IMG/VR virus record: IMGVR_UViG_3300013118_000260
Location: 1 to 33,626 of that record
Strand: one strand, 5' to 3'
From: a virus
Lineage: Duplodnaviria > Caudoviricetes
DNA: 33,626 bases
Positions 2,703-25,874 of the stretch are shown in pieces. How positions within the stretch are numbered: the stretch's first letter is position 1; each line of letters begins with the position of its first letter. Position numbers and translations under genes: made by a program. A model generated the notes under the pieces. It did no database searches, was not told the DNA's origin, and saw nothing but the letters and a program-made list of their open reading frames with translations.

Positions 2703-2760
2703 ATAACTGCTCCAATCTTAACGTTTCCAGTAACCCATGAAGCCAAGAGACGATCTCTCT

Positions 2761-2946: not shown

Positions 2947-2960
2947 AAGTTACCTCCTTT

Positions 2961-4032: not shown

Positions 4033-4040
4033 ATTTTAAA

Positions 4041-8567: not shown

Positions 8568-8570
8568 AAA

Positions 8571-9452
8571 TTATAACAACCTTTTTCTATTTAAAGCATC
8601 AATGATTTCATTTCTATCTTTCTTGTACGCATCCATGTTCTGTTGAATCATCCTTTCTTGTTCTGCTGTATAACCAGCTTTTAATTCTTTCTTTATTTCT
8701 TTTTCTGGCGTTTCCAATCCCCAAGCTTCTCTAACTGCTTGCTTCACAAGATCCTTCTCTTCTTTCTTTTGTTCTTTCTGTGTTATTTTTTCTGGCTTCA
8801 TCCAGCTTGGCATATTCGCTGATTTCCCAGTAAGCTCCTTAATCTTATCCCTGTTTTCTTCCCATGCCCTCCTAGCTGCTCCCTTAAACTCTTCCATCTG
8901 ATCAGCTGGATACTTACCCTGTGGTATAGCAGTTCTTCTAGCTTGGTACGCTTCCCGTAAATTCTCTATATCCTGCCAATAGGGTTGCGTAGCACCATAC
9001 CTTGCTGTAGTTGCATCTCTCTTTCGTGCCAATGCTTCATTTGCTAAAGATTTAGATTGAAGATTCTCTATCTGCGCTTGCGTTTTATCACTAGCCAAAG
9101 TATCCTGGGGAGCTACCTTAAAAGAAGGTCTGCCTGCTTCGTCATATTCAATGCCTATATCATATTCACCCGTACCAGCTAGATTAGCCATTTCTTTGAA
9201 CATGAACTTATTCTCTTCTTCTTTCTTTTTCTTTGCTGTAACTCTGGCAAATGAACCTAGCGCACTCTGCCAAGGATCAGGTTGCGCTTCTCTCATATAC
9301 CCTAAATTAAAGTATTTACCCATGCCAGATATGGGAGTAGGTTGCTGACCGAAATCACTGAACCCACCTGCTATATCACCCAGCAGATTTAATATAGGGT
9401 GTTCTTGCTGGAACCTATCTCCAATGCCAAGAATATCACTTAAAGTTGCCAT
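8571..9452 (-). CDS. Putative internal virion / ejection protein (293 aa)
   Basis: Synteny; Gly-rich N-terminus and coiled coil; SD AGGAGG. Confidence 0.55.
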   Translation of the reverse strand: MATLSDILGIGDRFQQEHPILNLLGDIAGGFSDFGQQPTPISGMGKYFNLGYMREAQPDPWQSALGSFARVTAKKKKEEENKFMFKEMANLAGTGEYDIGIEYDEAGRPSFKVAPQDTLASDKTQAQIENLQSKSLANEALARKRDATTARYGATQPYWQDIENLREAYQARRTAIPQGKYPADQMEEFKGAARRAWEENRDKIKELTGKSANMPSWMKPEKITQKEQKKEEKDLVKQAVREAWGLETPEKEIKKELKAGYTAEQERMIQQNMDAYKKDRNEIIDALNRKRLL

Positions 9453-9462
9453 TCAAAACCTC

Positions 9463-9690
9463 CTAAAATGATTGCGGCCAAGGACTACCACCAGGTAAAT
9501 ATTGATCTATTGCACCAAACCCACCAAAAGCTCTGCCACCACCATAATTCTTTTTCCAATCTAAATAAGGATTACCAGTATCCGGTAAGTCAAACTGGCT
9601 GCCCCCCCCTCCTCCTCCGCCAAATATGTCACCAAAACCAGGGACAAATTTATCAAAAATGCGACCACCAAAATCAAATATTCTATCCAT
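9463..9690 (-). CDS. Gly/Phe-rich ORF, in-frame continuation of 9703..10908 past one TAG
   Basis: TAG AAA TCC AGT TTT ATG is in frame; no SD before the ATG at 9690. Confidence 0.45.
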   Translation of the reverse strand: MDRIFDFGGRIFDKFVPGFGDIFGGGGGGGSQFDLPDTGNPYLDWKKNYGGGRAFGGFGAIDQYLPGGSPWPQSF

Positions 9691-9702
9691 AAAACTGGAT
9701 TT

Positions 9703-10908
9703 CTACGCTTGTTCTGCGTAATCTCTACCATATTGAAGCTCTAGGTTTCTCCAATAATCCCGATTTTCCAATTCAAACCTGTTCCATTGATCTTGTAAAT
9801 CCATCCCGTATCTAGTTGTATCAGCTTGATACTTCTGCATCTGTTGTTGCTGTAACAATCTATCCCAAGCACCCTGCTCACCAATCTGACCGAGGTACTT
9901 TTGAATATCTCTTCCGTATACATCAACACCAATCCCCTGCTGTCTGAGCAAGGTATCCATCATCGTCTTATCCCAATCTAAACCCATACGTTGCGCTAAT
10001 TCAAATGCCTCCATTTCTCTGCCCTTGCCTCGTTCCCAGATATCGCCTCCAAGCTGCATCCCGAACTGACCAGCACCCATAGCCTGCCCCGTTAATCCTG
10101 CCTGTGCTCCTATCCCATACTGTTCCTGCCCTGCTATATCCCCAAACACCCCTCTCTTAGCAGCAAACACATCTCTTGGGTATTGGTAGAGGTACTTGGA
10201 AAACTCCTGGTTATACATATCATCGTATTTCTCTTGTAACTTCGTCCATTGTTTAGCTGACGGGGTACTCCCCATCATGCCATGTGCAGCACTAATAGCT
10301 TTCCATTTACTTTCAGATTCAGCACGTTCATCTTCTATCTGTCTTTTATATGGATCTAAAATACGTCCAATAGTAGCTTCCTGGGCTGCTGACGGTATTA
10401 AATCAGCTAAACTCGTCAATTCAGTTTCCCTTGTCCCTGTCCTACTAACGAAATCATCTATCATCTGCTGAGTAGCTTGATACCCTACATCAGCCCTGCC
10501 ACCAAACAAATCAGCATAATCCAATGCTCTCTGCATCATAGGACTCTCTTCAGCCAATATCTGTTCCATCATTGTCCCAGCTTGAGCTTGACTGAAATCA
10601 CGTTGAGCCATTAAATCCTGCATCATTATAATACTCCAAGGATCTGAATAAGTAGGTTCGGTGATATCAAGAAACTGTGGATCTATTGTTCCTGGAGCAC
10701 TAGGAGCAGTTACCCCCGTTGTCCCCTCACCTTCACCTTCTTCACCGCTAATGGTTACACCACCGCCAGGAGAAGGTGCTGGTGTAGTATCTCCACCACC
10801 TGTGTATATCCAGATAGATTCTCCAGTATAACGATCTGGCCCAAAGAAATTCCACCCTGGTTCGTTTGGACGGTACTTACTTCGCAGTTTATCGCCTACC
10901 TTAGCCAT
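9703..10908 (-). CDS. Putative internal virion / ejection protein (Gln/Gly/Met-rich)
   Basis: Composition and AAHGMMGST motif resemble podovirus pilot/ejection proteins; first of the three-gene block. Confidence 0.6.
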   Translation of the reverse strand: MAKVGDKLRSKYRPNEPGWNFFGPDRYTGESIWIYTGGGDTTPAPSPGGGVTISGEEGEGEGTTGVTAPSAPGTIDPQFLDITEPTYSDPWSIIMMQDLMAQRDFSQAQAGTMMEQILAEESPMMQRALDYADLFGGRADVGYQATQQMIDDFVSRTGTRETELTSLADLIPSAAQEATIGRILDPYKRQIEDERAESESKWKAISAAHGMMGSTPSAKQWTKLQEKYDDMYNQEFSKYLYQYPRDVFAAKRGVFGDIAGQEQYGIGAQAGLTGQAMGAGQFGMQLGGDIWERGKGREMEAFELAQRMGLDWDKTMMDTLLRQQGIGVDVYGRDIQKYLGQIGEQGAWDRLLQQQQMQKYQADTTRYGMDLQDQWNRFELENRDYWRNLELQYGRDYAEQA

Positions 10909-10919
10909 TCTAAGCCTCC

Positions 10920-12047
10920 TTATTCTAACGCTTCTATACGAGCCTCTAACTCTTCTAATTTAGCTTGTGCATCTTCAGCCCAAATTGCTGTTCCTATAGC
11001 AATCCGGCAAATATCTTTACCGTAAAGATCAATTTCAATCTCTTGGATTGTCTTATCAGGATATTCAGTTTGCAACTCAATAAGTTTTCCTTTTTTAGTT
11101 TCCAGTTCATCTATCACTTCCTGGTTCTTATCAGGTTTATTTTTTTCTTTATTTATATTCCCTTCTAAATGTTCAAGTTCATTCTTACCACTTATCCCAT
11201 CATACGGTTTAGCAGGTTTCTTAGCATCTTCTAATGCCCAATCAAGGTAATCCGAGGCTGTAGCATCTTTAGCTTTCTTACCTTTCTTTTCCATGTGCTT
11301 ATCAATCTTAGGAGAGAACGTTGTCCATGAATTATCTGCATATCCGTTACCATTAGATGCAAAATAAAACTCTAACGAATTACTAGGATCATTAAATTCA
11401 AACCGTATGTTATTATTAGGATCATCGGCCATCAACAACGTTAAATCAGTGTCATCACTGCCAATCCTTTGAAAATAAATAACAGAAACATCATTGTCAG
11501 AATTATGAAACTCTATACCTTGGGTGTCTACCCCTGCACCAGTATAAATCAACGCACCATCTGAATCAAAATAAGTTGTTGCATTGTGCATAACAATATT
11601 GCCAGAACTACTAGGATCTATAGTAATATCTCCACTAGAACCGTCAGCAATGAGTATGCTTCCAGAATTTGTGCCAGCATTGGTATTAAGAGTCAAATCA
11701 CCAGTACCTTCAGTCGTCAGCGTTACATCTGTATCTAAATCCCCAATAGCAACCGTATCAGCAAATAAATTCACATCACCAGTACCATTAGGGGTTAAAT
11801 CCAAATCACCATTAGCGGTTGTTACTATATCGTTACTCCCTACATCCATAGTCAATGCACCGGTCATTGTACCGCCTGTTTCATCTAGCTTGGTTGTACT
11901 AGCCGTAGATACAGCATTGAAATCTGCGGTAATAGCATCCGCATCTGCCACAGCACCGTTAGTGTATGTGTTCTGAACAGAGTAATCACTAGCATAAACC
12001 TGTGCCGCTAATATTGTTCCACATAGGACTAAAACCAATTTCTTCAT
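10920..12047 (-). CDS. Tail fibre/needle-like protein with an N-terminal signal peptide
   Basis: Start reassigned to MKKLVLVLCGTILAAQVYA (SD GGGAGGAG). TYTNGAVADADAITADFNAV resembles a fibre attachment segment, followed by GGTMTGAL and LTPNGTG beta repeats and a chaperone-like coiled-coil end LEARIEALE. Confidence 0.65.
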   Translation of the reverse strand: MKKLVLVLCGTILAAQVYASDYSVQNTYTNGAVADADAITADFNAVSTASTTKLDETGGTMTGALTMDVGSNDIVTTANGDLDLTPNGTGDVNLFADTVAIGDLDTDVTLTTEGTGDLTLNTNAGTNSGSILIADGSSGDITIDPSSSGNIVMHNATTYFDSDGALIYTGAGVDTQGIEFHNSDNDVSVIYFQRIGSDDTDLTLLMADDPNNNIRFEFNDPSNSLEFYFASNGNGYADNSWTTFSPKIDKHMEKKGKKAKDATASDYLDWALEDAKKPAKPYDGISGKNELEHLEGNINKEKNKPDKNQEVIDELETKKGKLIELQTEYPDKTIQEIEIDLYGKDICRIAIGTAIWAEDAQAKLEELEARIEALE

Positions 12048-12057
12048 CTTCTCCTCC

Positions 12058-13650
12058 CTATTGATCCCCGTAATATTCACTACGTCTAATACCTTGTAAA
12101 TAAACTATAAACCCATAGAATTTAAAGTATTCATCCAAATCATCATTCCCGAACCTGAACTGTATACCCCAACATTCTTTATCAATCTCTCTGCGTAACT
12201 TAACATCATCTTCAGAACCCCATACGTCTGTACCCCACACCATTGTTCCCCATAAATTAGAAGCTGGGGTAAGGTCTAAAGTTCCAGAAGTCCAAGTGCT
12301 CCCTGAATCAAGACGGTAATAATCATCTAGTTCCCACGCACCACTGCCTTCTGCATAAACGTATTCGTAACGTATGTGCTTCATCCACGCTAAATCAAAC
12401 GTAAACCGTTTAGTGTCAAAAGTAGCGTCTATCGCTGCACTGTTATCATTAGTGCCAGTATACATTCTAAATACAGTTGAATTGTAATCAGAAGAATAAA
12501 TAAACTGTTCTAAAGTTGTAGGGTCTGTAACAGTTGTCATTTGCCCTGGAACTAACCCAGTCCAATCACCTAACCAAGCATCCAACAAATAGTCATAAGC
12601 TAGAATAACATTGTTCTGAGTAGCACTACCGTCACTAACACCCAACAAGTAATGGTCGTAATCTTTGAATACCACACTAACAGAATCGTCTAGGCGAGCA
12701 GGGTTAATAGCGTTAATATCAGTGTCTATCCGGTCAGATATTTGCGACACACTTGTGCCCTCTAACTTGTACACACCATCATAGGCAAGAAACAGAATCA
12801 TGTTATCTATGTTCTGAATACTCTTGTTACTTATACACCCTACATTTGAATTGAGTTTTGATACTACCCAATTAGTGTCTGTAGGGTCTGAAGCATCCAA
12901 AACATAAATTGACCGTTTCTTGAATATAACCAGATAGTTATTGATTGTAGTACCACTGTACTTCAACTCAGCTAATCCAGTAATCTCATCACCGTCATTA
13001 AAATCTATCTGAATTGTCCCGCCACTTGTAAAATCATCTGCCTCTAAAACGTCTGTATAAGATAGTCTGTTAGGAAAATCATCATTGCCGGCAGCCCATA
13101 ATCTGTTGCGGTGTACTATCTGGATAGCATTAGCTTCAGCTGTAGGAAGTTCTGTGGTCGTAGCAGAGGAACCATCCCAGTATACAGGGGTAGCTCCATC
13201 ATCCATAGCAATCGCTACTGTATCCCCATTGGTAAGCACAAAGGTGGTAAATGTAACATTATCACAGGTGAAACTAGTATTTATCGTATCCCATGTACCG
13301 TCTAACCCATCCATCTTGTAAAGATAGTTATCGTCTGAAGCGCACATGAAATAACGGTTGCCATCAGGAAGAGCAAAATCATGGAACCCTACTACATCTC
13401 CGGTAACAGCAACAGAATTAAGAACTGTTGCCATGCCGGGACGGGTGAGAATACTCCCTTCATCAAAATAAACATTCTGTGCAGAGGCAAGCTCCCGATC
13501 ATCAATCATCATTGGATTGAGAGCTTTATTAACACCTTTAGTTAGGCCAAAATACTTCTGTGCTTTAAGATTGTCCTGCGCTAGAGCTACCCTACACGTC
13601 AGCAGAACGGCGAGTAGTAGTATAAGTTTTTTCCAATTCAGTCCACGCAT
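12058..13650 (-). CDS. Tail nozzle / tail tubular protein B-like (P22 gp10 / T7 gp12 type beta-propeller) with a signal peptide
   Basis: Start reassigned to MRGLNWKK (SD GAGGT). Motifs AQNV..ILTRPG, HRNRLW, DGDEITGL, LVIFKKRSIY, VGCISNKSI, FLAYDGVY, ISDRI; follows the adaptor gene. Confidence 0.75.
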   Translation of the reverse strand: MRGLNWKKLILLLAVLLTCRVALAQDNLKAQKYFGLTKGVNKALNPMMIDDRELASAQNVYFDEGSILTRPGMATVLNSVAVTGDVVGFHDFALPDGNRYFMCASDDNYLYKMDGLDGTWDTINTSFTCDNVTFTTFVLTNGDTVAIAMDDGATPVYWDGSSATTTELPTAEANAIQIVHRNRLWAAGNDDFPNRLSYTDVLEADDFTSGGTIQIDFNDGDEITGLAELKYSGTTINNYLVIFKKRSIYVLDASDPTDTNWVVSKLNSNVGCISNKSIQNIDNMILFLAYDGVYKLEGTSVSQISDRIDTDINAINPARLDDSVSVVFKDYDHYLLGVSDGSATQNNVILAYDYLLDAWLGDWTGLVPGQMTTVTDPTTLEQFIYSSDYNSTVFRMYTGTNDNSAAIDATFDTKRFTFDLAWMKHIRYEYVYAEGSGAWELDDYYRLDSGSTWTSGTLDLTPASNLWGTMVWGTDVWGSEDDVKLRREIDKECWGIQFRFGNDDLDEYFKFYGFIVYLQGIRRSEYYGDQ

Positions 13651-14686
13651 GTAACCTCGACTTTTCTTTGCCACGCCATTTGACACGGCTATTAAATAAT
13701 TTAGCGTCATGTAAACTCATCATATAATCCGCTTTAGCATCTGCCATTTCAGCTATCCCTTTCTGATGCTGAGTGAATTTCCAATAAACATAATTCATGA
13801 TAATCGGATGAAATACTTTCTGGAACGGTAACTGCTCGTTATTGTTGTTTACTCTCAAAAACTTACAGTAATATTTAAGATTAATAATATATTCATCGTC
13901 AGGCGCAGGGTAAAGCAACACTCTCCTGCAAGGAGCAGGATCTATCTCATATGCGCTCGTACTAGCACTCATACCAGTTTTATGAACGGTAAGGGATGTG
14001 CCACTGGCTACCGCTGTAATCCGATACTCAATGTCATTAGCATCAACAATAAGAACCCTTCCCACCATCGTAGAATCCCAAGCTGTACCACTTCCCGTAA
14101 CAGTTGCACCAGAATTAGTAATAGTCCCAGTAGAATAATATGCAGAATCAGTCCATTCTGTCTCAATAAATTTCTGAGGTTCATCGCTATTAAACTCTCC
14201 CTTGTTATACCAAATATCCCAAACTTGAGAATCCTTCTCTAACGGTTCCTCATATCTGAACATAGCTTTAGTAGCAATGTAATCGTACGGTAAATCATAC
14301 TCGTCTTGGTATAACTCAAAGGTCAGGCCAGCTGTTGTTGTTCCCGTAAACGCTAAATCTAATGTAAGCTCAGTTGTAGATACAAATGCTGATATGCGGT
14401 ATATATCATCCACACCAGTTACCTTAATCTTCCTACCCACCATAGCAGAGGTAAATGTAGTTCCACTGCCAGTAAGAGTGGTAGAACCGTCTGTTACAGT
14501 GACAGTACCAGTTTCATAAGGGGCAATAGTACGGAAACGATACTCTCTTACTTGACTCTCAAACAAGTGCCGGCACATATCCTCAACCGCACTGTTCACC
14601 CATAAGCGAACACTGTTACGCCCGTCTGTAGTGTCTTTAGCACCACTACGTCTAAATGCTTCTTGATAAACTTCCAGAAGATTCAC
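13592..14686 (-). CDS. Head-tail adaptor (tail tubular protein A-like) with two inserted beta-rich repeats
   Basis: Helical N-terminus, YDLPYDY, LLYPAPDDEY, FHPIIMNY; duplicated TGT-x-T...GSGT...MVGR unit; GTG start with SD GGAGG. Confidence 0.7.
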   Translation of the reverse strand: MNLLEVYQEAFRRSGAKDTTDGRNSVRLWVNSAVEDMCRHLFESQVREYRFRTIAPYETGTVTVTDGSTTLTGSGTTFTSAMVGRKIKVTGVDDIYRISAFVSTTELTLDLAFTGTTTAGLTFELYQDEYDLPYDYIATKAMFRYEEPLEKDSQVWDIWYNKGEFNSDEPQKFIETEWTDSAYYSTGTITNSGATVTGSGTAWDSTMVGRVLIVDANDIEYRITAVASGTSLTVHKTGMSASTSAYEIDPAPCRRVLLYPAPDDEYIINLKYYCKFLRVNNNNEQLPFQKVFHPIIMNYVYWKFTQHQKGIAEMADAKADYMMSLHDAKLFNSRVKWRGKEKSRLHAWTELEKTYTTTRRSADV

Positions 14687-14698
14687 ATTAAACCTCCA

Positions 14699-15133
14699 TT
14701 ATAAAGGCACTGCTTCAACAGATAGTTTCTTTCCTTTACGCCAATCGTTAAAATCTTCGTTTAATTTCTTGCCACCACCACGATAAATGAACTTCTTTAT
14801 CTTCTTGTTGCCAGCCTCAGAATTAGCGTTCTGGCTGGTATATATCCCTTCAGCTGTATCAGAGAAGATACATTTGGTTATCTTGCCACTCTTGTTCTTC
14901 TTGATATACACATAGTCTTTCGGGGTAAGCTCGTTCTCGATAATGTAGGTAGCTACGTCATTAGTGCCGTAGATCGTATCCCTGAGAATAATGCCGTACT
15001 CACTCTTACCGTTAGCATGTTTAATCTGCCAAATTTCGCCGAGATAATCTGCACCAAACGCATGTAAACACACAATGAATATCGCACCTACTGTAACAAG
15101 CAATAACACTACTTCATCCATTCTTAATCTCAT
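14699..15133 (-). CDS. Hypothetical protein with a signal peptide or N-terminal anchor
   Basis: VVLLLVTVGAIFIVCLHAFG|ADY; Lys-rich mature part. Confidence 0.55.
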   Translation of the reverse strand: MRLRMDEVVLLLVTVGAIFIVCLHAFGADYLGEIWQIKHANGKSEYGIILRDTIYGTNDVATYIIENELTPKDYVYIKKNKSGKITKCIFSDTAEGIYTSQNANSEAGNKKIKKFIYRGGGKKLNEDFNDWRKGKKLSVEAVPL

Positions 15134-17175
15134 TATCTACCTGCCTCGTAAAGTTCACTTACTTGTGCCGATGATAATCCACGACTATAGAATCGTACAT
15201 CATCTATCGTGCCATCAAAATAAGCATTATATCCTGCGTTTCGGTATCCAAAAATAACATCAGAAGAATTATCCAAATCATCAGCAGATGCACCTAATCC
15301 ATCTGCACTGCCATCTATATACAAATACACATTAGAACCCACTCTCGTTGCAACTACATGATGCCATGTATTCAACGATATAGTACCCGTACTAGTAGCA
15401 TCACTAACCGCATCTACTCTCCATGTTAATGTGCCAACTTCATTTCCATTTACTTGCAAAGCATATTCATTCGCATTTTCCGGGTCGCCTTTACAGAGAA
15501 TCGTCTTATGCTGACTAGCCGCCGCATTAGTATCCAGATTTATCCATGCAGATACAGCAAACTCTCCCGTACTGAAATCTAAACTATCGGCATCACTTAC
15601 CGTAATGTATTGACTTGACCCATCTAAGTCTATTCCTTCCTTGATTTGCGCTGGAACTGTACTTGGAGAACCAGTAGTGGTACCGTTATTGCCTTCATTT
15701 GACTTATCATATACCGTAGTTCCGTTGACATCATTGGCATCCATAGGCAAACCCAATACTAAGTCTACACGGGAAGCTGCACTTATTTCTACAATCCTAT
15801 CAGCACTTAGAGCAGCTACTTCATCAGCCGTTAACAATCTATCCCATACTTTAAGATAATACCAATTACCCCTACCAGCCCAAGAACCATTACCGCCAGC
15901 ACCAAACAGTTGAGTTACCGCTCCCTGTGCCCAGGCAGTCGTATCTTGATTAAGTATCTGCGTACCGTTCATGTAAAAATCTGTTCTATCAGTAGTTGCA
16001 GAACTTACAACAACAAATATGGTTGTTTCGTTAGCCGCCCACTCACCTTCAAATGAAGCAGTAGCAATAGACTCTATTAACGTACCGCCTAAAGTTACGT
16101 CTAAGTTATTATCGCTAGGTCTTTTTAAGCTATATTCAGTTCCACTACTATCAAACACTGGTCTATTATTGCCATCATCAGCTGCAAAATTAGGTCTGTA
16201 TTTAACAGCAATAGATATTTCCGCCCCTCCACCAATAGGGTCAGTACCAGGAGAGTAAGAGATATGGTTTGCTGCTCCACCGCCAGTGTATTGCACATAC
16301 CCGTCAGAACCTTCTACAAACACCATTACTCCTGTTTCAGTACCATTTAAATCACTACCGCCGGTATCGTAAACCGTATCTGTAGCGTTATTGTTGCCGA
16401 AACTCCACTCCAACGTCATTCCCTCACGGCTGACAGCATCATTTTCTACTATCCTATCAGCACTTAAATCCGCTATTTCAGCAGCCGTAAGTAACCGTTG
16501 CCACACTTTAAAATCATGCATTTCCCCATCGAAACAACTTCCTCCAATATAACTGGAACCAATGTAAATTGTCGCTGGATCATCCGGTGTCCATGCAGTA
16601 GCTTCTGAATTTTGTATCTGTTCTCCATTTAACCAAATATTGTTGTCCCCTGTAGTCCCAGAATAAATAAGCACATTCTTCTCGTCTGCTAACCAATAAT
16701 CTTCATAAGTAGCAAGTGCTACTGTGGTTAATACAGTATTGCCTATCATAGCAACCAATGAATTACTTTGTGCTCCTGCCTGTTTAAATATCCCGTATCT
16801 AGTGTTTGCATCTGCCCCATCCGAAAGCACATAATATGAACCATCATTAGCGGCAAAATCAGGAGTAAATACATACATAATGCTACAATTAGCAGTGTTA
16901 TATACTCCCGTACCTGTGCCAGAAAAATGATTATTATTCGAGCCAGGAAAATCTACCCCCGTAACAGCAAATGTAAGCGTACCTGTTTCCGTCTGGTTTA
17001 AGTCGGATCCCCCAGTATCGTACACCGTATCCGTACCGTTGTTGTTACCGAAATCCAACTCTAAATTTAAATCAGCACGGCTAACAGGATCACTCTCAAT
17101 TATCCGTGCTTCGTTATTAAAAGAAATGCAACAAATCGTTAATAACGTAATGCTTATTAAAGTTTTCTTTAGCAT
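15133..17175 (-). CDS. Triple LamG/concanavalin-A-like domain protein with a signal peptide (putative receptor-binding or fibre protein)
   Basis: Three repeats ending FDGEMHDFKVWQRLLT, YLKVWDRLLT and FDGTIDDVRFYSRGLS; WHHVVAT and LYIDG LamG motifs. Confidence 0.85.
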   Translation of the reverse strand: MLKKTLISITLLTICCISFNNEARIIESDPVSRADLNLELDFGNNNGTDTVYDTGGSDLNQTETGTLTFAVTGVDFPGSNNNHFSGTGTGVYNTANCSIMYVFTPDFAANDGSYYVLSDGADANTRYGIFKQAGAQSNSLVAMIGNTVLTTVALATYEDYWLADEKNVLIYSGTTGDNNIWLNGEQIQNSEATAWTPDDPATIYIGSSYIGGSCFDGEMHDFKVWQRLLTAAEIADLSADRIVENDAVSREGMTLEWSFGNNNATDTVYDTGGSDLNGTETGVMVFVEGSDGYVQYTGGGAANHISYSPGTDPIGGGAEISIAVKYRPNFAADDGNNRPVFDSSGTEYSLKRPSDNNLDVTLGGTLIESIATASFEGEWAANETTIFVVVSSATTDRTDFYMNGTQILNQDTTAWAQGAVTQLFGAGGNGSWAGRGNWYYLKVWDRLLTADEVAALSADRIVEISAASRVDLVLGLPMDANDVNGTTVYDKSNEGNNGTTTGSPSTVPAQIKEGIDLDGSSQYITVSDADSLDFSTGEFAVSAWINLDTNAAASQHKTILCKGDPENANEYALQVNGNEVGTLTWRVDAVSDATSTGTISLNTWHHVVATRVGSNVYLYIDGSADGLGASADDLDNSSDVIFGYRNAGYNAYFDGTIDDVRFYSRGLSSAQVSELYEAGR

Positions 17176-17184
17176 AGAATCTCC

Positions 17185-17721
17185 CTATTCTAAATGTGCT
17201 TCTATTTTGACATCTATAATCTTTACGTTTGTATCTACATTCGTGTTGTTAACATCAAAACTCATTGAATACGCAAAATCAGCCAAAGTAACATCTCCCG
17301 TTAATATGGTTTCACTTGCATATCCACTTCCTCCATTTCCTATATTTGCTTCAGAAGCATCTGACGTTACAGTACCATCGTGGTCAGCACGATAAAGATC
17401 AAAATCAAAATCATCACCATTATCAGCTGTATAATAATATACGGTTATTTGGTCTAAAACTACCGTACCACCAAACATTTGATACGGAACACCTAGTGGA
17501 GCGTAAATCGTATCATTAACAGTGTCTGGATATATCATGTTTGCACTACTTTGTTCAATCGGCTGTCCTGTGATGAATAAAAAATCTGCAAATCCTAAAT
17601 GCCACACAAATGTTGCATCCGATACTTCTCCGCTTGCATGTCCAGCACCACCTACTTGTACTGCAAGAACAGGTGTGCAAACCAATGTTAAACCAAGCAC
17701 CAAAGCTATTAAATTACGCAT
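17185..17721 (-). CDS. Beta-rich acidic virion-associated protein with a signal peptide
   Basis: MRNLIALVLGLTLVCTPVLA|VQ; SD AGGAGG. Confidence 0.6.
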   Translation of the reverse strand: MRNLIALVLGLTLVCTPVLAVQVGGAGHASGEVSDATFVWHLGFADFLFITGQPIEQSSANMIYPDTVNDTIYAPLGVPYQMFGGTVVLDQITVYYYTADNGDDFDFDLYRADHDGTVTSDASEANIGNGGSGYASETILTGDVTLADFAYSMSFDVNNTNVDTNVKIIDVKIEAHLE

Positions 17722-17730
17722 ATAAACCTC

Positions 17731-20070
17731 CTAGTTATCTGATCTGGATAATTCATACCATTCCGTATCGGTAAGGTCGTAATACAGCTGTATCGTATCC
17801 CCTAACCCAAGCGTGAAATCAATACCGCCACTAAGTTGTAAATCACTATTTGCAAGATTGCTCTCATCCTGCAAAGTAACAGTATTGGTGTCATTAGTGC
17901 CGATAATCATTACTATCTGCCCGTCCCTAGCACCTGCCTCCAACGTAGGCGTACCAGTAAGCGTGGTTGCAGCACCAGAACCATATACCCTGATAGAAAC
18001 GCTATCGGTAGTAATTGCTGTACCTGCTGCCATGCTATATGTCACAGGAGCAGCCCAGAACGCTCCATGTAACTGCACACCATCGTCCGTAACAGAACCG
18101 TCACCATCGGCATCAGCAATTACATCAAATACAGGGAATCCATCTACCGCAAAAGAATATCCTACATCATCACCACTTGAAGCAGTGGTAGTTGACGGTA
18201 CGTCCATTGAGATAGAGTAACTATCGTCAGGCATGTCAATCTTACCAGCTAATAGATTATTAATACTTACACCACTTCCGGCAACAGCTGATATGTTTAA
18301 ATCACCTACACCAGTCGTAATGTATGCGTTTGTGTCATCGTGATAACTTTCTATGTAATCAGGGTCAGAGCCAATTGTCTTACCGGGGCAATAAACATAT
18401 ACAGAACCATCATCTCCATTACCGCCAGTATCGTTGTTTCCAGGCTGTAACACTACATTACCGCCATCACCGCCTACCGTTTCCAATAGGTTAGCGTCAC
18501 CGCCTTGTAGAACCAATGTGCCACCATCATCATTAGTTGTATCAGAAGCATCCTGATAGGCAGTTTGTGCAACCAATGTCATATTACTAGTTGCTTGATC
18601 TCCCGACCTAGTACCTTGTGAAACACTTGGAGCTGAAGCACTCGCTGACCAAGAAACAGTAGAATTATTTAAGATTAAAACACTATCAATTGTTGTATTA
18701 ACCCCTGATCTACCAAGAGTTAACGCTGTTTGTGTCGCTGTACCAACATTCAAAGCTGTAGCTGTAACTGTATCAATAGTTCCGTCAACTAGAACATTAC
18801 CATCAAAACGACAACTGCCATCATCTACCCACATAGCATAAGCGTTAGTAAGCGTCATATTAGCACCAGCTGCCGGAGCGTTATCAATATAAACCGTAGC
18901 CGCATCTGTTATCGTTAATGCACCACCTGCATCACCAATGTAGGTTGGACGTAAGAACTCTATTTCACGTTGCGTGGCTAACGGCCCAGCACCAGACGCC
19001 CATGTCTTATTAGCGGAAAAATCAAAAGTAACTCCAGTTACTTCTGTAGCCGCTGTTAAAGCCGTATGTGCGCCTCCTGTAACGCTAAATGCTATTGGTG
19101 TACCAGTACCAGCTCCTTGAGCTATAATCAATCCACCTAAATAATCAAAATATGCAACCTCTGTTGTAAGCCCATCAGGATATAAACTCAATATCTTATC
19201 ACCTGCTGTTGTTAAACTAGTTTCATTTCCAATTTGTACTCCAGCCACTCCACCGCCATCCGCTACATTACCCTCTACAGAAAGAGCACCAGCGGAAACA
19301 GTCTGAAGTATATTTGATTTAAAACTATCAGTTATCCCGGACAATGTTACTACCCCCCCATTAGGGTCAAACGTAATGTCACCTGCGCCTGTTGTAATTA
19401 CACCATTAGTTTGATTGTGAGTAAAAGCAAGCCAATCTGCTACAGTCGCCTGATCTGATGATTGGATAAATAAAGTCGGATTTGTAGATTGTGTATGTGC
19501 GAAATTTGTACTCTGATCCCCTGCTTCACAAATTGTTAAATGTCTACTAGCAGTGGCTAACGTTAAAAACAGCGAATCTACCGTCTGTGCTGTATTAAAC
19601 GCAAAACTACTATCGTCACTATCGCCACATGCGAGAAGTACATCATCTGGAATATTTACGATACTGTTATTTGTGTCAACAATCAATATGTCACCAGCAT
19701 CACCGTTCTGACGAATAAGTAATGCTTCATCAGCATCTACATCAACGGTTAAAGCCGCTTCTAAGTTTTGGGCTAAGGAGATTGTGGTCGTACCATCAAC
19801 AACGAGATCGCCATTCAAACTTACATCACCTTCTCTGGTGAGGCTAATACCAGTGTCTCCATATCCACCACCAATTTCAACACTGTCAGCAGTAACGCCA
19901 TTATCTGTCTGAATACCGCCATCCCCGTCAATGTCGCAGCCGGTCTGTCCGTACCCACCGCCTACTTTAAGGTAGTTGAAACGTTTCGCCTGCTCCCATC
20001 CAGCTTCCCAACAGAAAGCAGAACCACTGATTAGTACAATCCCCGTTACGATAGCCAAAACCTTCTTCAT
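17731..20070 (-). CDS. Long Gly/Asp/Thr-rich fibre-like protein (779 aa) with a signal peptide
   Basis: MKKVLAIVTGIVLISGSAFC|WE; beta repeats (GGTLVLQGG, GGNVVLQPG); C-terminal fibre-tip-like domain ending WYELSRSDN. Confidence 0.7.
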   Translation of the reverse strand: MKKVLAIVTGIVLISGSAFCWEAGWEQAKRFNYLKVGGGYGQTGCDIDGDGGIQTDNGVTADSVEIGGGYGDTGISLTREGDVSLNGDLVVDGTTTISLAQNLEAALTVDVDADEALLIRQNGDAGDILIVDTNNSIVNIPDDVLLACGDSDDSSFAFNTAQTVDSLFLTLATASRHLTICEAGDQSTNFAHTQSTNPTLFIQSSDQATVADWLAFTHNQTNGVITTGAGDITFDPNGGVVTLSGITDSFKSNILQTVSAGALSVEGNVADGGGVAGVQIGNETSLTTAGDKILSLYPDGLTTEVAYFDYLGGLIIAQGAGTGTPIAFSVTGGAHTALTAATEVTGVTFDFSANKTWASGAGPLATQREIEFLRPTYIGDAGGALTITDAATVYIDNAPAAGANMTLTNAYAMWVDDGSCRFDGNVLVDGTIDTVTATALNVGTATQTALTLGRSGVNTTIDSVLILNNSTVSWSASASAPSVSQGTRSGDQATSNMTLVAQTAYQDASDTTNDDGGTLVLQGGDANLLETVGGDGGNVVLQPGNNDTGGNGDDGSVYVYCPGKTIGSDPDYIESYHDDTNAYITTGVGDLNISAVAGSGVSINNLLAGKIDMPDDSYSISMDVPSTTTASSGDDVGYSFAVDGFPVFDVIADADGDGSVTDDGVQLHGAFWAAPVTYSMAAGTAITTDSVSIRVYGSGAATTLTGTPTLEAGARDGQIVMIIGTNDTNTVTLQDESNLANSDLQLSGGIDFTLGLGDTIQLYYDLTDTEWYELSRSDN

Positions 20071-20084
20071 CTAACCCTCCTTAA

Positions 20085-20906
20085 TTAACTCTTGTTCGTA
20101 TGTTCATACCAATTCAATTCTATTACATGGTAATTATCGTTATTGTCTAAACTAGTGGCTCTAAACGCATATTGCTGATTTTGTTCTAATAGAAACTCAT
20201 ATCTCCCTGATGCCGCTCCTCCAGCCTGACCTATACCCAAAAAACCGCCAGAAGAGCCTATAATAACTGAAGCTATTACTGTCCCGGTTATATTAGCACC
20301 AGCCGCTTGTGCTTCATTAAACGTAGTAACATTATTAGATACAGGAGCGGCTTGAACAGAAGTAACTTCACTTAAAGTATTGCTATTCCTGTCTCTATTA
20401 TAGGGCGTTATTTGCGTTCCCTCATCATTATCAATAGTAGGATTTTCTAATATCTCAAGTCTGGTTAAAGAAGTGCAAAATCCAGTAGCCACTATGTGAA
20501 TCCATTTTGTTGTGTCAGGAGTATTGAACGCAACAACAGATTGTTCACCAGTATTTGTACATTGGTTCTCAAAACATACTACAAAAGCATTACCGCTATG
20601 TATTTCATGGTGTTCATATTCAATCGTTTCAATAGCGTGAGTAGCGGCATCCATCTCTATTGGTCTGGCATCATCATCATCACGACGACCGTAAATAGCA
20701 CTTGCCGTTACTATCCCTTTCTTACCGTCAAGGTCATGTGTGCTATCCGTTAAGGTTTCTACTTCAACGTCATTCACCCCATCAGTAATCTGGGTCTTTT
20801 GCGTACCGTCTGTCTGATTGGCAATACTATCATCCTGCTTCTCTTCCGTAGCAGGATTAATCAATACTCCAAGAAGATTTGCTAGTTGCCTTACATGCTC
20901 ATCCAT
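20085..20906 (-). CDS. Hypothetical virion-associated protein (273 aa)
   Basis: In the structural operon; NPATEEKQD and EHHEIHSG motifs; beta-rich; no signal peptide. Confidence 0.55.
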   Translation of the reverse strand: MDEHVRQLANLLGVLINPATEEKQDDSIANQTDGTQKTQITDGVNDVEVETLTDSTHDLDGKKGIVTASAIYGRRDDDDARPIEMDAATHAIETIEYEHHEIHSGNAFVVCFENQCTNTGEQSVVAFNTPDTTKWIHIVATGFCTSLTRLEILENPTIDNDEGTQITPYNRDRNSNTLSEVTSVQAAPVSNNVTTFNEAQAAGANITGTVIASVIIGSSGGFLGIGQAGGAASGRYEFLLEQNQQYAFRATSLDNNDNYHVIELNWYEHTNKS

Positions 20907-21768
20907 TCTTTAACGCCCTCTCCCTTGCATCAAGGGTTTTACTATACTCTCTTAAATCTTTTGCCTGTAAATTCAATGCTTGTTGTTTACTCGCTAACAT
21001 ACGCTCTTTATCCTTCATCTGCTCCATTAACTCTTTACCTTTCTCCAAAGTAGTCTTGCTGTTAGCAATCAATTTCTCTGCCTGAACATTTTTCATGTTT
21101 ACTTCAGCTTCTTGTTTCTTTAATGCCTTATCTTTCCGTTCGTAAATACTAATCTGCTGCTCCACTAAGAGCCTATCGGCTTTAAGTAAATCTTCCCTTT
21201 CGTTAATCGCATTGGCTGATTCTGTCAGGGTAGCTTCCATATCCCTTACTAACGCTCTGCGTTCGTCTAGTTCATCCAAGGTTTCTTCATCCCTGGCTCT
21301 GGCTACCGCTAGTTCCTTGAGTTCTTTCTGTATCGCTATCTGAGTAGCCTTTGCTTTCGCTTCTGCTTCCCTGATACCGGTTGCCTTGTTCTGCAACGAT
21401 TGATCCAGTTTCTTCAAACTAGCTTCACGTTTACGCAAATCCACCAATCTGGTATCTGCATCAGCTTGTGCTTGATTGAGTTCAGCTTCCATTTCCTCTT
21501 TAACCTGCTCCTTTTTTTTGAGTTCAGCTTTGATCTTATTCATCTCACTAATAGCTTTAATCTTCTCAGCTTTAGCAGCAGTAATATCATCTGCCGCTTC
21601 AGCCTTGTTCTGTTCAAGTGCCGCAATCAATGCTTCCTTCTTTTTACCTAACGAAAGAATATCAGCTTTGATCTTCCCTAATTCAGCGTTGTACTTCGCT
21701 ATTGTAGAAGGATTAGGTTTCCCCTTTAGTACAGTCGTATAAACAGTATCTTCGCCTTCCCATCCCAT
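20899..21768 (-). CDS. Long coiled-coil protein (289 aa)
   Basis: Nearly continuous K/E/A/L heptads; SD AAAGGAGG. Confidence 0.7.
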   Translation of the reverse strand: MGWEGEDTVYTTVLKGKPNPSTIAKYNAELGKIKADILSLGKKKEALIAALEQNKAEAADDITAAKAEKIKAISEMNKIKAELKKKEQVKEEMEAELNQAQADADTRLVDLRKREASLKKLDQSLQNKATGIREAEAKAKATQIAIQKELKELAVARARDEETLDELDERRALVRDMEATLTESANAINEREDLLKADRLLVEQQISIYERKDKALKKQEAEVNMKNVQAEKLIANSKTTLEKGKELMEQMKDKERMLASKQQALNLQAKDLREYSKTLDARERALKNG

Positions 21769-21780
21769 GATTCCTCCTTT

Positions 21781-22170
21781 TTACGCATCTTCCATTCTGT
21801 AAAAGTAAGCGGTGACTAAAGTATCCGTTTGATTTCCTGCCTGTCCGGTGATAAGTATACGGATATAGTTCATCGGCACAGCACTAACACTGGTAATGAA
21901 ATATGTTTCCTGGGTAAGGTTAGTTACAATATCCGGTGCACCGTCAGGAATAACGTAGTTTGTATCCGCTGAACCTTCAGTTGTGGGTCTTGTGAAACTC
22001 TGCTCATACTGCACCAGCAGGTCAGGGGTTCCCAGAACAGAAGTAGCCACAATCGCAATCCCGAAATTAGTTCCATGAGAACCAATATCGATTGAATCGC
22101 TTCTTACCGCCCCAGTACCATTAACCAACTCCGCACTAAATATCGTAATATTTCCACCAACTCTAGCCAT
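21781..22170 (-). CDS. Small beta-sandwich virion protein (possible spike/fibre base)
   Basis: Alternating beta strands, YIRILITG; the function is inferred from position only. Confidence 0.45.
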   Translation of the reverse strand: MARVGGNITIFSAELVNGTGAVRSDSIDIGSHGTNFGIAIVATSVLGTPDLLVQYEQSFTRPTTEGSADTNYVIPDGAPDIVTNLTQETYFITSVSAVPMNYIRILITGQAGNQTDTLVTAYFYRMEDA

Positions 22171-23269
22171 TTGCTACCTCCTTTTTAACCACTTCCCACA
22201 TTGCTATCGCTAAGAGCGCAATTATCATCAGGTGTGGCATATGAAACGTGAAATTAGTTAAACAGTTAATTGCTACACAGCAAAGAACACAAAATATTAT
22301 TAGTGTTTCTTGTGTCTTCTTCATCTTAATAAATTTATATATAGAATCTGCGATATACCCTATCACAGCTAATAAGCTAAACATTCCTGATTCATAAAGT
22401 ATTTGAAAATATTCGTTATGCGCTTCTAAAACCCTGTTGCCTACCGGCCTCAAAACCTTAAAATTCCCTAATCCATAACCCTTAAACCAAGCTGCCTGAC
22501 TCATATTCTTTACTATTTTCTCCCACCAAACCAACCTGCCCTGCGCTCCTTTCCACCTGTACAACACATAAACAATATTCATCCCCAAGATAACAAAAAA
22601 CAATAGTAACCAGAACGTATCTATCTCTTTGAAACTATCCAAATAAAAGAACAGGAAATAAGCAAGTGTAAACGCTGCAAGTAACATTCCCCCTCTGGTA
22701 TGGCACACTGTCCAGTTCTTTAGGAACAGGGCTGAAAGAACCACCGGTATTAATACCCACCATTTACGCCTGAAAAAACACGGTAAACATATCCCTATGA
22801 GTGCTGACAGGTGATTAGGATTGTGCATGAACCCCACTACTATCTTGCGTGTGAATGTCAGGTTATCCGTATTGTTCTTGTACGGGTGGTATATCGGGTC
22901 AAAGTCAAAGAACTGACCCCAAGCATACAACGCATTTAATAACGCAATCACACAAAGCATGTTCAAAATCGGTGATAATCGTTTATTGTTCAAAGATTGA
23001 ACAAGCAAGCATAATATCCCCATACCGCAAGCTACTTTAAAAAAGCTGAAGTATACTGGGGCTGTATGGTGTATGAATGCTGTAACCGTACAAGCCAAGA
23101 AGAACAATCTCAACCACCAGTTCTTTATCCAGCAAGCTGCTACCATGAAGAACACAAACAGTATCCATACCTCTTTAGCTGCTCGTATTTGAAAGAATTT
23201 CGGGTACATATACCCAAAAAACGCTATGAGAAAGACCGATATTACTAACCATGTGGTATTCTTTTTCAT
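22163..23269 (-). CDS. O-antigen ligase / Wzy_C-family polytopic membrane glycosyltransferase (WaaL / O-OTase-like)
   Basis: About 10-12 hydrophobic helices; GFMHNPNHL, TRGG, GRLVWW, GYGLGNF, AHNEYFQILYESG, FTFHMP; likely start MKKNTTW at 23269. Confidence 0.88.
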   Translation of the reverse strand: MKKNTTWLVISVFLIAFFGYMYPKFFQIRAAKEVWILFVFFMVAACWIKNWWLRLFFLACTVTAFIHHTAPVYFSFFKVACGMGILCLLVQSLNNKRLSPILNMLCVIALLNALYAWGQFFDFDPIYHPYKNNTDNLTFTRKIVVGFMHNPNHLSALIGICLPCFFRRKWWVLIPVVLSALFLKNWTVCHTRGGMLLAAFTLAYFLFFYLDSFKEIDTFWLLLFFVILGMNIVYVLYRWKGAQGRLVWWEKIVKNMSQAAWFKGYGLGNFKVLRPVGNRVLEAHNEYFQILYESGMFSLLAVIGYIADSIYKFIKMKKTQETLIIFCVLCCVAINCLTNFTFHMPHLMIIALLAIAMWEVVKKEVANG

Positions 23270-23283
23270 TATCCACCATCCTT

Positions 23284-23313
23284 GGGGGAGAGGCATTATT
23301 TCACCCCTCCCCC
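23284..23313 (-). terminator. GC-rich hairpin after the capsid/decoration genes (attenuator or mRNA stabiliser)
   Basis: GGGGGAGGGG-N10-CCTCTCCCCC on the minus strand; no U-tract, so probably leaky. Confidence 0.45.
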
Positions 23314-23338
23314 GTTTAACTCTCTCACAAAATCAGTT

Positions 23339-24406
23339 TTAGTCGTTGTCTGTCCAAGTACCATTAATCGCTGTTACAAACCAGCCACCATTACCGTCAC
23401 AAGCCAAAGTTACTGAAGTCCCTGTAGCGCTAGCAGCACTCAGCAATCTATCTCCACCGGCTAAAGAATTGCCGCTAGGAGAATAGATAATCGTGTCTGT
23501 CCCGGTAGGATCAATGTTCACTTGGCTGCTAGTAAAAGCAACAATAGTGTAAACATTGCCGGCTGTAACTCCTTCAGGCAACGTCATTGTTACTCCATTT
23601 GCAGTAACCGCAAACAAATTACCACTATCAGAACTAACTAAAATTGTACTTGCGGTAATTGCTTCACCACCAGTCATCCTGAAACCAGCTCCCTGAATCA
23701 CTCCATCTGAAGTAATATCACCTACCCCGGTAACAATACCAGAAGGGTCAATATCCCAATCAGATGAATTAACTGTTAAGGTTTCATCACCATCACCAAT
23801 GGAAATGTCTGAACCATCAGCATCAAGTGAATCGAGAGCAATCTGACCTACATTAGCAATGTTGGCGTCACCATTATCAATACCGGTAACGTTAATCGAA
23901 CCGCTCGTACCGCCATCAATAATCTGCATTAAAGTATTCGTGCCATCAGTGAAATTAATCTGACCATCTACGTCATTCTCCATCGTTTCACCATTAATCA
24001 TCTCAACAATACTGAGTCCAACCAAATCAGCTGAAGTGCCAGTATCACGGAGAATCATCAAATCGTTGGTGCCGTCTGTGAACGCTAGATCACCATCAGT
24101 AATGTTCTCGATCTCTTCTCCGTTATCAAAGATAACTTTACGAATCCCCGACAAATCACCTGTAGTGCCAGTATCAACGATTGACCATAATGTGTTCGTG
24201 CCATCAGTAAACGAAATCGTGCCATCGGTAGAGTTATCAATGCTCTCACCGTTGTCTAGCACAACCACGCCACTACTGTTTACCCGAAACACATCATCAG
24301 CACCGCCTTCATCCGTTATGGTGAATCTATCGCCTATTGCGGCGTACAACACAAACCCTACTCCTAAGACAGAAATAAGGAATGCGATAAATAGAACTTT
24401 TTTCAT
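23339..24406 (-). CDS. Capsid-adjacent fibre/decoration-like protein with a signal peptide and three 43-aa repeats
   Basis: MKKVLFIAFLISVLGVGFVLYA|AI; NGE...DG...FTDGTN x3; C-terminal TLP...G..YTI...GGWFV..NGTW domain. Confidence 0.65.
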   Translation of the reverse strand: MKKVLFIAFLISVLGVGFVLYAAIGDRFTITDEGGADDVFRVNSSGVVVLDNGESIDNSTDGTISFTDGTNTLWSIVDTGTTGDLSGIRKVIFDNGEEIENITDGDLAFTDGTNDLMILRDTGTSADLVGLSIVEMINGETMENDVDGQINFTDGTNTLMQIIDGGTSGSINVTGIDNGDANIANVGQIALDSLDADGSDISIGDGDETLTVNSSDWDIDPSGIVTGVGDITSDGVIQGAGFRMTGGEAITASTILVSSDSGNLFAVTANGVTMTLPEGVTAGNVYTIVAFTSSQVNIDPTGTDTIIYSPSGNSLAGGDRLLSAASATGTSVTLACDGNGGWFVTAINGTWTDND

Positions 24407-24434: not shown

Positions 24435-25331
24435 TTAGGCAGCTGCGTATTCGCCCCATAGGCCCAAGCCACTGGTAGCACCACGATCATAATCCGTCAC
24501 CACATCAAAGTGGATAGACTTATTACTATCTTGTGTCCACCGGCTCATTTTAGGTTTCATAAACCATACAAGTTTCATCCTGTGATCCGCTTTGTCACTC
24601 AGCAAATACCAACTGTTAATGTTATTCAGAAGATTGTTCTCAATCGGAATCAATCTGTTGAACATGAAGTTGCTGTCGTTGTTAGCGGAACCAGGGATCT
24701 GTGCGCTTTTAAGAATCGCATGTACTACTGACGCCTTGTTAGGATGAAACATGATATATTTCGGCTGGTTTCCACCAGGAGCAACATCATGTCTCAGAGT
24801 TGTGCTCATCAGATAGTATGCGTTATTAACCGCACTAATACTCAATGCACTTGCCGCACCAGGAATGTTATCGTAAGTACCGCCATAGAGGTTAATATGT
24901 GCGGTATCAAAAATGAACAATCCGTCTGGAGTGGTATAAGTATCATCTCCATCGTTGAACAATGCTGTGCAATCTTCATCAACAGTCTTCTTAACTGCCA
25001 TACCCAGCATTTTGGAACTTTGGGAAACAATTCCCAATCTCTGGTATTTCCAGGTTTGCCGGCCAACTACGATAGACAACCCTCTGCCAGTTGCCACATA
25101 CTGTTTCGTGCTACCGTATGTGAAATCAGCGGTCGGTACGTCTTCAAGTTCACCAATCTGCTGTAAATACCCTATGCCGCCAGCTTCCAGTTCTTCCCAA
25201 TAATAATCTGCGGAACTCTCCACATTCATAAACTTGTCATAAACTGGGCTGTAAGCCTTTGCTCCTTCTGCATAACCACGCTTGACGATCGGACTAAGCT
25301 CATCCGCAATGGTCGTTAGTGTTATAGCCAT
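24435..25331 (-). CDS. Major capsid protein (HK97 fold, Mu gpT-like family)
   Basis: 298 aa after the scaffold; TPDGLFIFDTAH, ALSISAV, PKYIMFHP, WYLL motifs. Confidence 0.8.
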   Translation of the reverse strand: MAITLTTIADELSPIVKRGYAEGAKAYSPVYDKFMNVESSADYYWEELEAGGIGYLQQIGELEDVPTADFTYGSTKQYVATGRGLSIVVGRQTWKYQRLGIVSQSSKMLGMAVKKTVDEDCTALFNDGDDTYTTPDGLFIFDTAHINLYGGTYDNIPGAASALSISAVNNAYYLMSTTLRHDVAPGGNQPKYIMFHPNKASVVHAILKSAQIPGSANNDSNFMFNRLIPIENNLLNNINSWYLLSDKADHRMKLVWFMKPKMSRWTQDSNKSIHFDVVTDYDRGATSGLGLWGEYAAA

Positions 25332-25349: not shown

Positions 25350-25874
25350 TTAGACACTCGCTTGATCGCCAGCGAAGATAGATTCGTTAAATACAACAAC
25401 CATGTCAGTGTTACTTCCCCACGCATTATCAACAGCATCTACTCTGCCTAATACACGCAGTTGTAATCCTGAACCATAGTCACTGCTGTTAAGTTCCTGA
25501 ATGGATCTACCCCTAAATGTATCAGCAGCACCATCAACATGATTGGCTGTAGCACCAATATTTGCCAACGCATCTGTACCGTTACCCTGAACAATAAACC
25601 GTGTTCCAGGTAATGCAAGCGCTACATCAACAAATCCTGCTGTACTAGCAGCTAAAGACTTCTGCGCTACCATGCTAGAGTTATAACAATTCGTTACAAC
25701 GCCAACTACGGTCACACCGGCATTAGCAGCAGCACGGGCAACGTAACCGTCCCCATCCTGGTCAACGCAATCGCCAGGAGCGACTGTAAGTGCTTCATCG
25801 CCCTGAACCTCAAAGCGTTTAATCGTATACTTCTCGTTCTCCATAAGACTAAAACCATTTGGTCTGTCTGGCAT
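25350..25874 (-). CDS. Putative capsid decoration/cement protein
   Basis: PNGF start, GD-x-V, VVGV, F-x-VQ, LRVLG; immediately upstream of the capsid gene. Confidence 0.6.
   Translation of the reverse strand: MPDRPNGFSLMENEKYTIKRFEVQGDEALTVAPGDCVDQDGDGYVARAAANAGVTVVGVVTNCYNSSMVAQKSLAASTAGFVDVALALPGTRFIVQGNGTDALANIGATANHVDGAADTFRGRSIQELNSSDYGSGLQLRVLGRVDAVDNAWGSNTDMVVVFNESIFAGDQASV

Follow-up and report, generated by a model that had tools for sequence, protein, structure and literature searches.

The textbook view has tailed phages completing their particles in the cytoplasm. The 33,626-nt stretch of viral DNA analysed here (positions 1-33,626, the entire record G000, IMGVR_UViG_3300013118_000260; hereafter the window) raises the question of whether some of them finish their tails elsewhere, as seven genes of its minus-strand late operon, named by the coordinate of their first nucleotide (24406, 20070, 17721, 17175, 15133, 13650 and 12047), begin with apparent signal peptides, and one of these, 13650, is the sole gene for the tail nozzle. 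All seven N-termini were present in the sequence where the original prediction, made from the DNA letters alone, had placed them. A literature search with most subscription journals outside its coverage found no published account of signal peptides on tailed-phage nozzles or tails. In one recent work, signal peptides are used to flag filamentous and budding viruses without tailed-phage hallmarks (10.64898/2026.09.15.751708).

The nozzle or hub gene (12058..13650, phrog_578, single copy) is the strongest case among the seven. The model of its product (pLDDT 76) returned tail nozzles of Pa223, VP1, A4, Pan3, P22 and SU10 as top Foldseek matches and aligned with the Pa223 hub over 441 residues (VIA Z 30.6, rmsd 2.4 Å), while profile matches to six solved phage tail chains were also obtained; the objection that the nozzle might not be a virion component failed. 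The fold is, over its whole length, that of the SU10/Pa223/P22-type podoviruses (PDB 9nwi, 7z4b, 8eap, 8zkk), with which the window also shares the portal and adaptor families (SU10 type) and the order of adaptor, nozzle, fibre and ejection genes. The solved nozzles, however, start at residues 1-3 and are leaderless, whereas the window nozzle has 24 extra residues corresponding to the predicted signal peptide (13650-13579), which sets this phage apart from the solved podoviruses and their leaderless tail proteins. On the 13650 model, residue 2 of Pa223 falls at position 27 and residue 2 of SU10, P22 gp10 and Sf6 at position 29. Because the solved nozzles start just past the cut predicted after residue 24, the modelled leader is read as an addition to a complete nozzle. 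An internal start, which would have undone this reading, was looked for and rejected, as no ATG, GTG or TTG codon lies between codons 1 and 47, and a start at M47 would delete the segment equivalent to Pa223 residues 2-46, part of the adaptor-binding domain (10.1101/2025.06.11.659172). Nozzle, adaptor and fibre-head genes each occur once in the genome, so that there is no leaderless spare. The nozzle also has a conserved three-tryptophan WG-repeat loop of low pLDDT at residues 465-480; Pa223 holds its trimeric fibre by a three-tryptophan loop positioned differently (10.1101/2025.06.11.659172).

Leaders were scored with an in-house rule demanding a net positive n-region, at least eight uncharged hydrophobic residues and small residues at -3/-1. 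Genes 24406, 20070, 17721, 17175, 13650 and 12047 pass it, whereas not one of the remaining 21 late genes does (from shuffled sequences, 0.1 passes would be expected), which bears out both the proposed tripartite signal peptides and their absence from portal, scaffold, capsid, 174-aa protein, adaptor and ejection proteins. Gene 15133 (14699..15133, 144 aa), already regarded as the weakest, fails since its n-region lacks net positive charge; it carries an atypical leader or signal anchor (15133-15053), and its ortholog in L015, a locus syntenic with the window, has a canonical leader (24% identity, E 7e-5). No twin-arginine motif, lipobox or second hydrophobic or transmembrane (TM) segment was found in any of the seven proteins. 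The first starts proposed by the open-reading-frame callers were 13710 and 12080, but 13650 and 12047 were taken as the true ones because Shine-Dalgarno sites and orthologs favour them; in 24406 and 15133, weak internal GTG/TTG codons near the leader end could also serve as starts.

The post-nozzle tail fibre (10920..12047; signal peptide 12047-11991, 19 aa) has a predicted mature start that lines up with where leaderless post-nozzle fibres begin, and its L015 ortholog has a leader; a solved-structure search with the fibre-head profile gave no matches. Gene 17175 (15133..17175) encodes a 680-aa protein with three LamG/ConA lectin stretches (PF13385, E 8e-43), a candidate receptor binder whose signal peptide (17175-17107, 23 aa) had its cut set by the ortholog, the L015 counterpart being 37% identical and leader-bearing. 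The cut of the 779-aa fibre-like protein (17731..20070; signal peptide 20070-20011, 20 aa) was likewise set by its ortholog, which in L015 (E 2e-34) carries a different leader. The 178-aa product of 17721 (17185..17721; signal peptide 17721-17662) resembles residues 556-629 of this 779-aa protein (phmmer E 2e-5) and has no clear ortholog in L015. The remaining leader gene, 24406 (23339..24406; signal peptide 24406-24341, 22 aa), codes for a 355-aa fibre-like protein with internal repeats, whose ESM Atlas neighbours are viral clusters (fibre C-terminal family 0.90; adhesin-like model TM-score 0.63); its single-sequence fold (pLDDT 38) gave no usable model and a solved-structure sequence search no matches. 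The gene directly follows the capsid gene, and the product may be a head fibre rather than a tail part.

How far the leaders extend beyond this phage was asked of 159 nozzle homologs, of which 12 came from one search and the other 147 were taken from the 150 best of 45,594 matches. Twenty-seven of those listed, the window's own included, pass the rule and three more bear leaders by eye. The 27 leaders are unrelated in sequence, with alanine at -1 in 22, a position where the rule itself demands a small residue. In a 163-row nozzle tree, 33 of the 34 leader-bearing nozzles fall in one half (79 rows) and a single one in the other (84 rows). In a 68-row tree, built from a chosen subset and midpoint-rooted, 13650 belongs to a five-member leader-bearing clade (SH-aLRT 97), one leaderless clade is nested among leader-bearing ones (support 88-94), and the leader state changes at least nine times. 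Such lability would suit leaders that do not work as export signals, whether the proteins start at non-canonical codons, engage Sec slowly or are trimmed in the cytoplasm, so that they stay there and assembly is ordinary, as would the fact that the neighbouring gene 22170 (21781..22170, 129 aa, phrog_28213) manages without one. Non-functional leaders are nevertheless very unlikely, considering that the n/h/c pattern persists while the sequence diverges across nozzles 22-43% identical to 13650, that leaders end where leaderless and solved proteins begin, that the nozzle has no standard internal start, and that the leader state is common to whole gene sets.

This last point can be followed in several relatives. 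The L015 orthologs of 20070, 17175, 15133, 13650 and 12047 all have leaders, differing in sequence from those of the window, and its adaptor and ejection orthologs are leaderless (the 24406 counterpart would lie beyond the contig end). A co-variation set of 128 non-redundant nozzle loci contained 125 with a callable nozzle N-terminus, 14 of them leader-bearing; in the 61 loci with a fibre-head gene, nozzle and fibre both carry leaders in seven, the nozzle alone in none, the fibre alone in one and neither in 53, which makes 60 of 61 loci concordant (Fisher p 1.8e-8). Two loci that fell outside the fibre-head profile, L015 and L063, are both leader/leader by eye. When the leader is stripped, the fibre start falls in register with that of leaderless fibres. 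Leaders occur on 53 of 160 genes neighbouring leader-bearing nozzles versus 41 of 1116 beside leaderless ones, and on none of the 91 adaptors called in the same 128 loci. Eight of ten new loci found by capsid likeness were read, five of which reach the nozzle: L212 has leaderless structural genes; L215 and L218 have a leader on the post-capsid protein and, by eye, on a fibre-like post-nozzle protein, with none on the nozzle; L211 has it on the nozzle and not on the adaptor; and L214 on both. No locus read combined an exported nozzle with a leaderless fibre, and in the loci listed no leader was met on any portal, capsid or ejection protein. The predicted leader states are thus nested, from none to fibre, then nozzle, then adaptor (the single case of L214), and we infer that this progression mirrors the order of assembly, beginning at the tip and moving inward.

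Taken together, the leaders are very probably working export signals, and the export of the nozzle and of the fibre-like proteins is well supported by comparison with relatives and by structure. The proposal of an exported module at 10920..24406 holds for the seven leader genes, but the interval also contains the leaderless 22170, 21768 and 20906, the adaptor and a multi-TM protein (23296). The proposed opposition of cytoplasmic heads to exported distal tail and fibres was similarly sustained for nozzle and fibre, and weakened by the possible head fibre 24406 and by relatives that export the post-capsid protein, in one case the adaptor, or in others only the fibre; the time and place of joining would in any case be conjectural. 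The division is better put as one between outer, late-added parts and the head core.

Two nozzle relatives used as queries found no cultured phage above 28% identity, and two scans of genome contigs found no prophage. MW495066.1 ('Microcystis phage MaAM05', L206) has the bacterial housekeeping genes lepA, proS, ftsH and hppA around a short leaderless portal-capsid-adaptor-nozzle-fibre cluster, and gives the impression of a bacterial contig that contains a cluster of phage origin, not of a jumbo phage. A relative with an exported nozzle (G002) has an outer-membrane beta-barrel-like gene (L221:3330-3944, plus strand; PF13505, slightly below cut-off).

A possible reason for export is offered by gene 23296 (22163..23296), which the original prediction had missed. 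Its product has the multi-TM fold and motif of the Wzy_C superfamily (PF04932 E 1e-4, below cut-off; ESM Atlas Wzy_C 0.98, TM-score 0.79), keeps R201, R254 and H293, matched by eye to WaaL/PglL catalytic residues, and has an L015 ortholog (36%) above the PF04932 cut-off; judged by sequence and model, it is a member of the O-antigen ligase/O-oligosaccharyltransferase superfamily. It resembles PglL/WaaL in fold and motif and in that the enzyme gene adjoins a secreted-protein gene, pglL homologs adjoining pilin genes in 21 of 31 cases (PMC3643930), and differs in being phage-encoded and within a late structural operon. The PglL_A motif (PF15864), short and here sought in a distant protein, had no match at E 0.01 in 23296 or the relatives scanned. 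A Wzy_C profile, with seeds from five leader-nozzle loci that a TM filter over the whole locus set had picked out, placed the gene in five of seven leader-nozzle versus none of 39 leaderless-nozzle loci (the 46 whose sequence extends 7.5 kb or more upstream of the nozzle), the five positives being the seeds themselves. Because the gene upstream of Wzy_C has a leader in seven of seven loci where it is visible, while the nozzle is sometimes leaderless, Wzy_C appears from these gene contexts to track the exported post-capsid protein, not the nozzle. The product of 24406 is a candidate glycosylation target. That Wzy_C acts on virion proteins is a possibility that falls somewhat short of likely. 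Virion glycosylation in mycobacteriophages uses soluble glycosyltransferases, whereas the window's candidate is a membrane enzyme of a family acting on the periplasmic side. In common with this candidate, glycosylation in the mycobacteriophages Che8 and Rita is phage-encoded and modifies proteins on the virion surface (as cited in PMC11256854).

All three leaderless genomes scanned contained cytoplasmic glycosyltransferases or enzymes of nucleotide-sugar metabolism, and none were seen in the two Wzy_C-bearing relatives scanned (proteins of 110-420 aa; small numbers). One leaderless relative (G010, 47 kb) has a large cluster of glycosyltransferase, epimerase and radical SAM genes (L235:4004-14200, L237:1261-3743). 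Directly before the adaptor, leaderless-nozzle relatives have another family of multi-TM proteins (L060:1358-2803, L082:2870-4195, L092:7315-8739, L104:7380-8711, L180:629-2056 and L179), which bear a DD motif at the N-terminus, match TPR weakly and recall TMTC-type GT-C transferases, without Pfam support. A search from the Wzy_C side found only the window's phage, and counts of D-S/T and N-x-S/T motifs in the late proteins allow no interpretation without the identity of the host. Members of the Atlas cluster closest to this Wzy_C come most often from Ca. Omnitrophota, a weak lead to the host as the cluster gives no range; phage associations are so far unreported for this group, according to the portion of PMC13452462 (2026) drawn upon.

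The same enzyme lends itself to another explanation, namely that most of the exported proteins modify the host surface or act as decoys (lectin, serotype conversion by Wzy_C, superinfection exclusion), only some of them joining the particle, and then after lysis in the medium. It is helped by the fact that PglL is not separable from WaaL by simple sequence comparison (PMC3643930), by the positional basis of virion membership for 20070, 17721, 17175 and 15133, and by P22 heads and tail parts joining in vitro, to go by the title of one cited work. Such a role is quite unlikely in light of a leader that sits on the single, indispensable nozzle, of a Wzy_C gene translationally coupled inside the late operon, and of the absence of an integrase, by Pfam, from the 62 genome proteins scanned, which speaks against lysogenic conversion.

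In the preferred model, terminase, portal, scaffold, capsid, adaptor and ejection proteins, all leaderless, would form DNA-filled heads in the cytoplasm. Nozzle, post-nozzle fibre and lectin, together with three or four more outer proteins, share the pattern of cleavable Sec/signal peptidase I signals, supported by conservation and structural register. They would be exported and fold in soluble form in the periplasm, where the phage Wzy_C may, somewhat doubtfully, add a lipid-linked host glycan to some of them, first to the protein encoded just upstream. Exported parts would meet the heads only in the interval between the opening of the inner membrane by holin-type lesions and the removal of the outer membrane, the intact outer envelope serving as assembly vessel and a closed portal having to hold the DNA until joining. 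This course of Sec export, periplasmic folding, perhaps glycosylation, and joining after inner-membrane breach is reasonably likely. Far more speculative, and on balance doubtful, is the broader proposal of an old, broad short-tailed lineage that finishes its particles outside the cytoplasm, with nozzle and fibres Sec-exported, glycosylated with host lipid-linked glycan by a phage oligosaccharyltransferase and joined to DNA-filled heads inside the closed outer envelope, export having advanced inward from the tip, first to the fibre, then to the nozzle and the adaptor, with renewed loss in lineages that have cytoplasmic sugar enzymes instead.

Several observations weigh against export followed by late joining. 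Gene 22170 is leaderless and its L015 ortholog (33%) has a signal peptide, pointing to a leader lost in the window; L015 has leaders on the orthologs of five of the seven genes, with 22170 as an exception to the shared subset. After allowing for relatedness, the nozzle-fibre comparison shrinks to three independent pairs (two changing the same way, one without change; p 0.5), and co-evolution of the two leader states is therefore only suggested. The nozzle alone is structurally supported as a virion part, 20070, 17721, 17175 and 15133 being assigned by position. Wzy_C is absent from two of the seven leader-nozzle loci, stands beside leaderless nozzles in three loci (L011 and, as non-seed matches, L215 and L218), and lacks the conserved histidine in L189 and L011. 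Exported nozzles have a median of three cysteines versus four in leaderless ones (25 vs 65 nozzles, p 0.38), and a disulfide motive for export was rejected as far as nozzles alone are compared. The main difficulty, however, is how DNA could be retained for long without a nozzle, which is hard to explain because P22 heads without plug lose DNA even before lysis (PMC3741392), and because the closed portal proposed as a temporary hold in T7 is a brief state, adaptor binding being proposed to reopen it (PMC6702177).

This difficulty keeps alive the possibility of assembly at the inner membrane, where DNA would be capped early and no retention problem arises. Filamentous phages assemble Sec-targeted virion proteins there, those of Ff/M13 having type I signal peptides and using SecYEG (PMC4823517), 15133 could be a signal anchor, and, a further point against late joining upon lysis, no canonical endolysin was found by Pfam among the 62 genome proteins scanned, small genes being only partly covered. 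Yet Ff virion proteins are integral membrane proteins assembled during ssDNA extrusion, whereas none of the seven leader proteins has a second TM anchor and the dsDNA head would be preformed; inovirus features (TM-anchored coat proteins, a pI ATPase) are replaced by terminase, portal and capsid, no pI-like ATPase or secretin occurs among the scanned proteins, and a putative holin/spanin-like cassette is present. Canonical endolysins were likewise not found in the leaderless relatives scanned. A comparison of proteins of 110-420 aa covered 107 of 122 in the four genomes that are leader-bearing or mixed and 110 of 113 in the three leaderless genomes. DPBB_1 turned up in a single genome on either side and Hydrolase_2 in one of the leader-bearing genomes, and an endolysin contrast between the two groups was accordingly discarded. 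Membrane assembly is on this evidence unlikely, and export with joining after inner-membrane breach is preferred.

The genome that houses this module is that of a 45.6-kb short-tailed phage with SU10/Pa223-type portal, adaptor and nozzle and a probably diderm host, part of G001 (IMG/VR, 45,606 bp, direct terminal repeats; CheckV completeness estimate 68%) being near-identical to the window. Terminase, portal and major capsid protein, all found with Pfam/PHROG, together with adaptor and beta-propeller nozzle, place it in the short-tailed Caudoviricetes (podovirus morphotype). The late operon is a single packed unit (gaps of -59 to +42 nt in the part holding the seven leader genes) with the order terminase, portal, probable scaffold, capsid, leader module, three probable ejection genes and probable lysis cassette. 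All on the minus strand and leaderless are the terminase large subunit (30711..32399; phrog_2 E 3e-20), the portal (27658..29520; PF23899 E 5e-21), the probable scaffold (26287..27078, from position and composition), the 174-aa protein preceding the capsid gene (25350..25874; phrog_37556, function not known) and the major capsid protein (24435..25331; PF25209 E 4e-8). A 278-aa Gly/Tyr/Ser/Pro-rich low-complexity protein without family match (29705-30541, minus strand) lies between terminase and portal. The label 'decoration protein' for the 174-aa product found no confirmation in a BLAST comparison with the post-capsid protein of L185, which gave no match.

Within the leader module, a leaderless 289-aa coiled-coil-like protein (20899..21768) is absent from L015, with look-alike genes after Wzy_C in L185, L186, L189 and L011 (by eye, no homology test passed), and a leaderless 273-aa protein (20085..20906; phrog_5335) has an also leaderless homolog in L183. 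The single-copy head-tail adaptor (13592..14686), with two fibre-type insertions, matches the VP1 adaptor in a profile search (E 0.016), and its L015 ortholog matches PF24175 SU10_adaptor (E 8e-10). The three probable ejection genes (10908, 9452 and 8567; 5637..10908) are leaderless; 8567 matches phrog_6651 (internal virion protein), the others being assigned by position and composition. The probable lysis cassette (2312..4789) comprises small TM genes, a GH5/GH39-like protein and an overlapping pair of a TM gene and a Cys-leader gene (2702/2575) arranged like spanins, although 2575 does not match the strict lipobox pattern; the holin and spanin labels are putative. The GH5/GH39-like protein (2961-3890) has a family match below cut-off and an odd, Cys-rich stretch of 45 first residues, so that its true start may differ, and a solved-structure sequence search with it gave no matches. 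A promoter and terminator scan was uninformative. Elsewhere in the genome are a GroES-like gene (PF00166; L096:9067-9438, minus strand) and three small early-side genes with signal peptides (L095:1585-1866 and, on the minus strand, L095:2033-2215; window 1833-2054, plus strand).

What would be new here is the proposed assembly route, the folds being known. The nozzle is a core channel piece that seals the DNA, and its export implies a different morphogenesis: if it is indeed exported, tailless heads would have to keep their DNA, late joining would be tied to lysis, and virion parts would be open to periplasmic modification. The export claim can be tested without culturing the phage. If it is true, the commonness of leaders in this family (27 of the 159 listed nozzle homologs) would mean that genes with signal peptides in uncultured phages are frequently misassigned to host-like or accessory categories.

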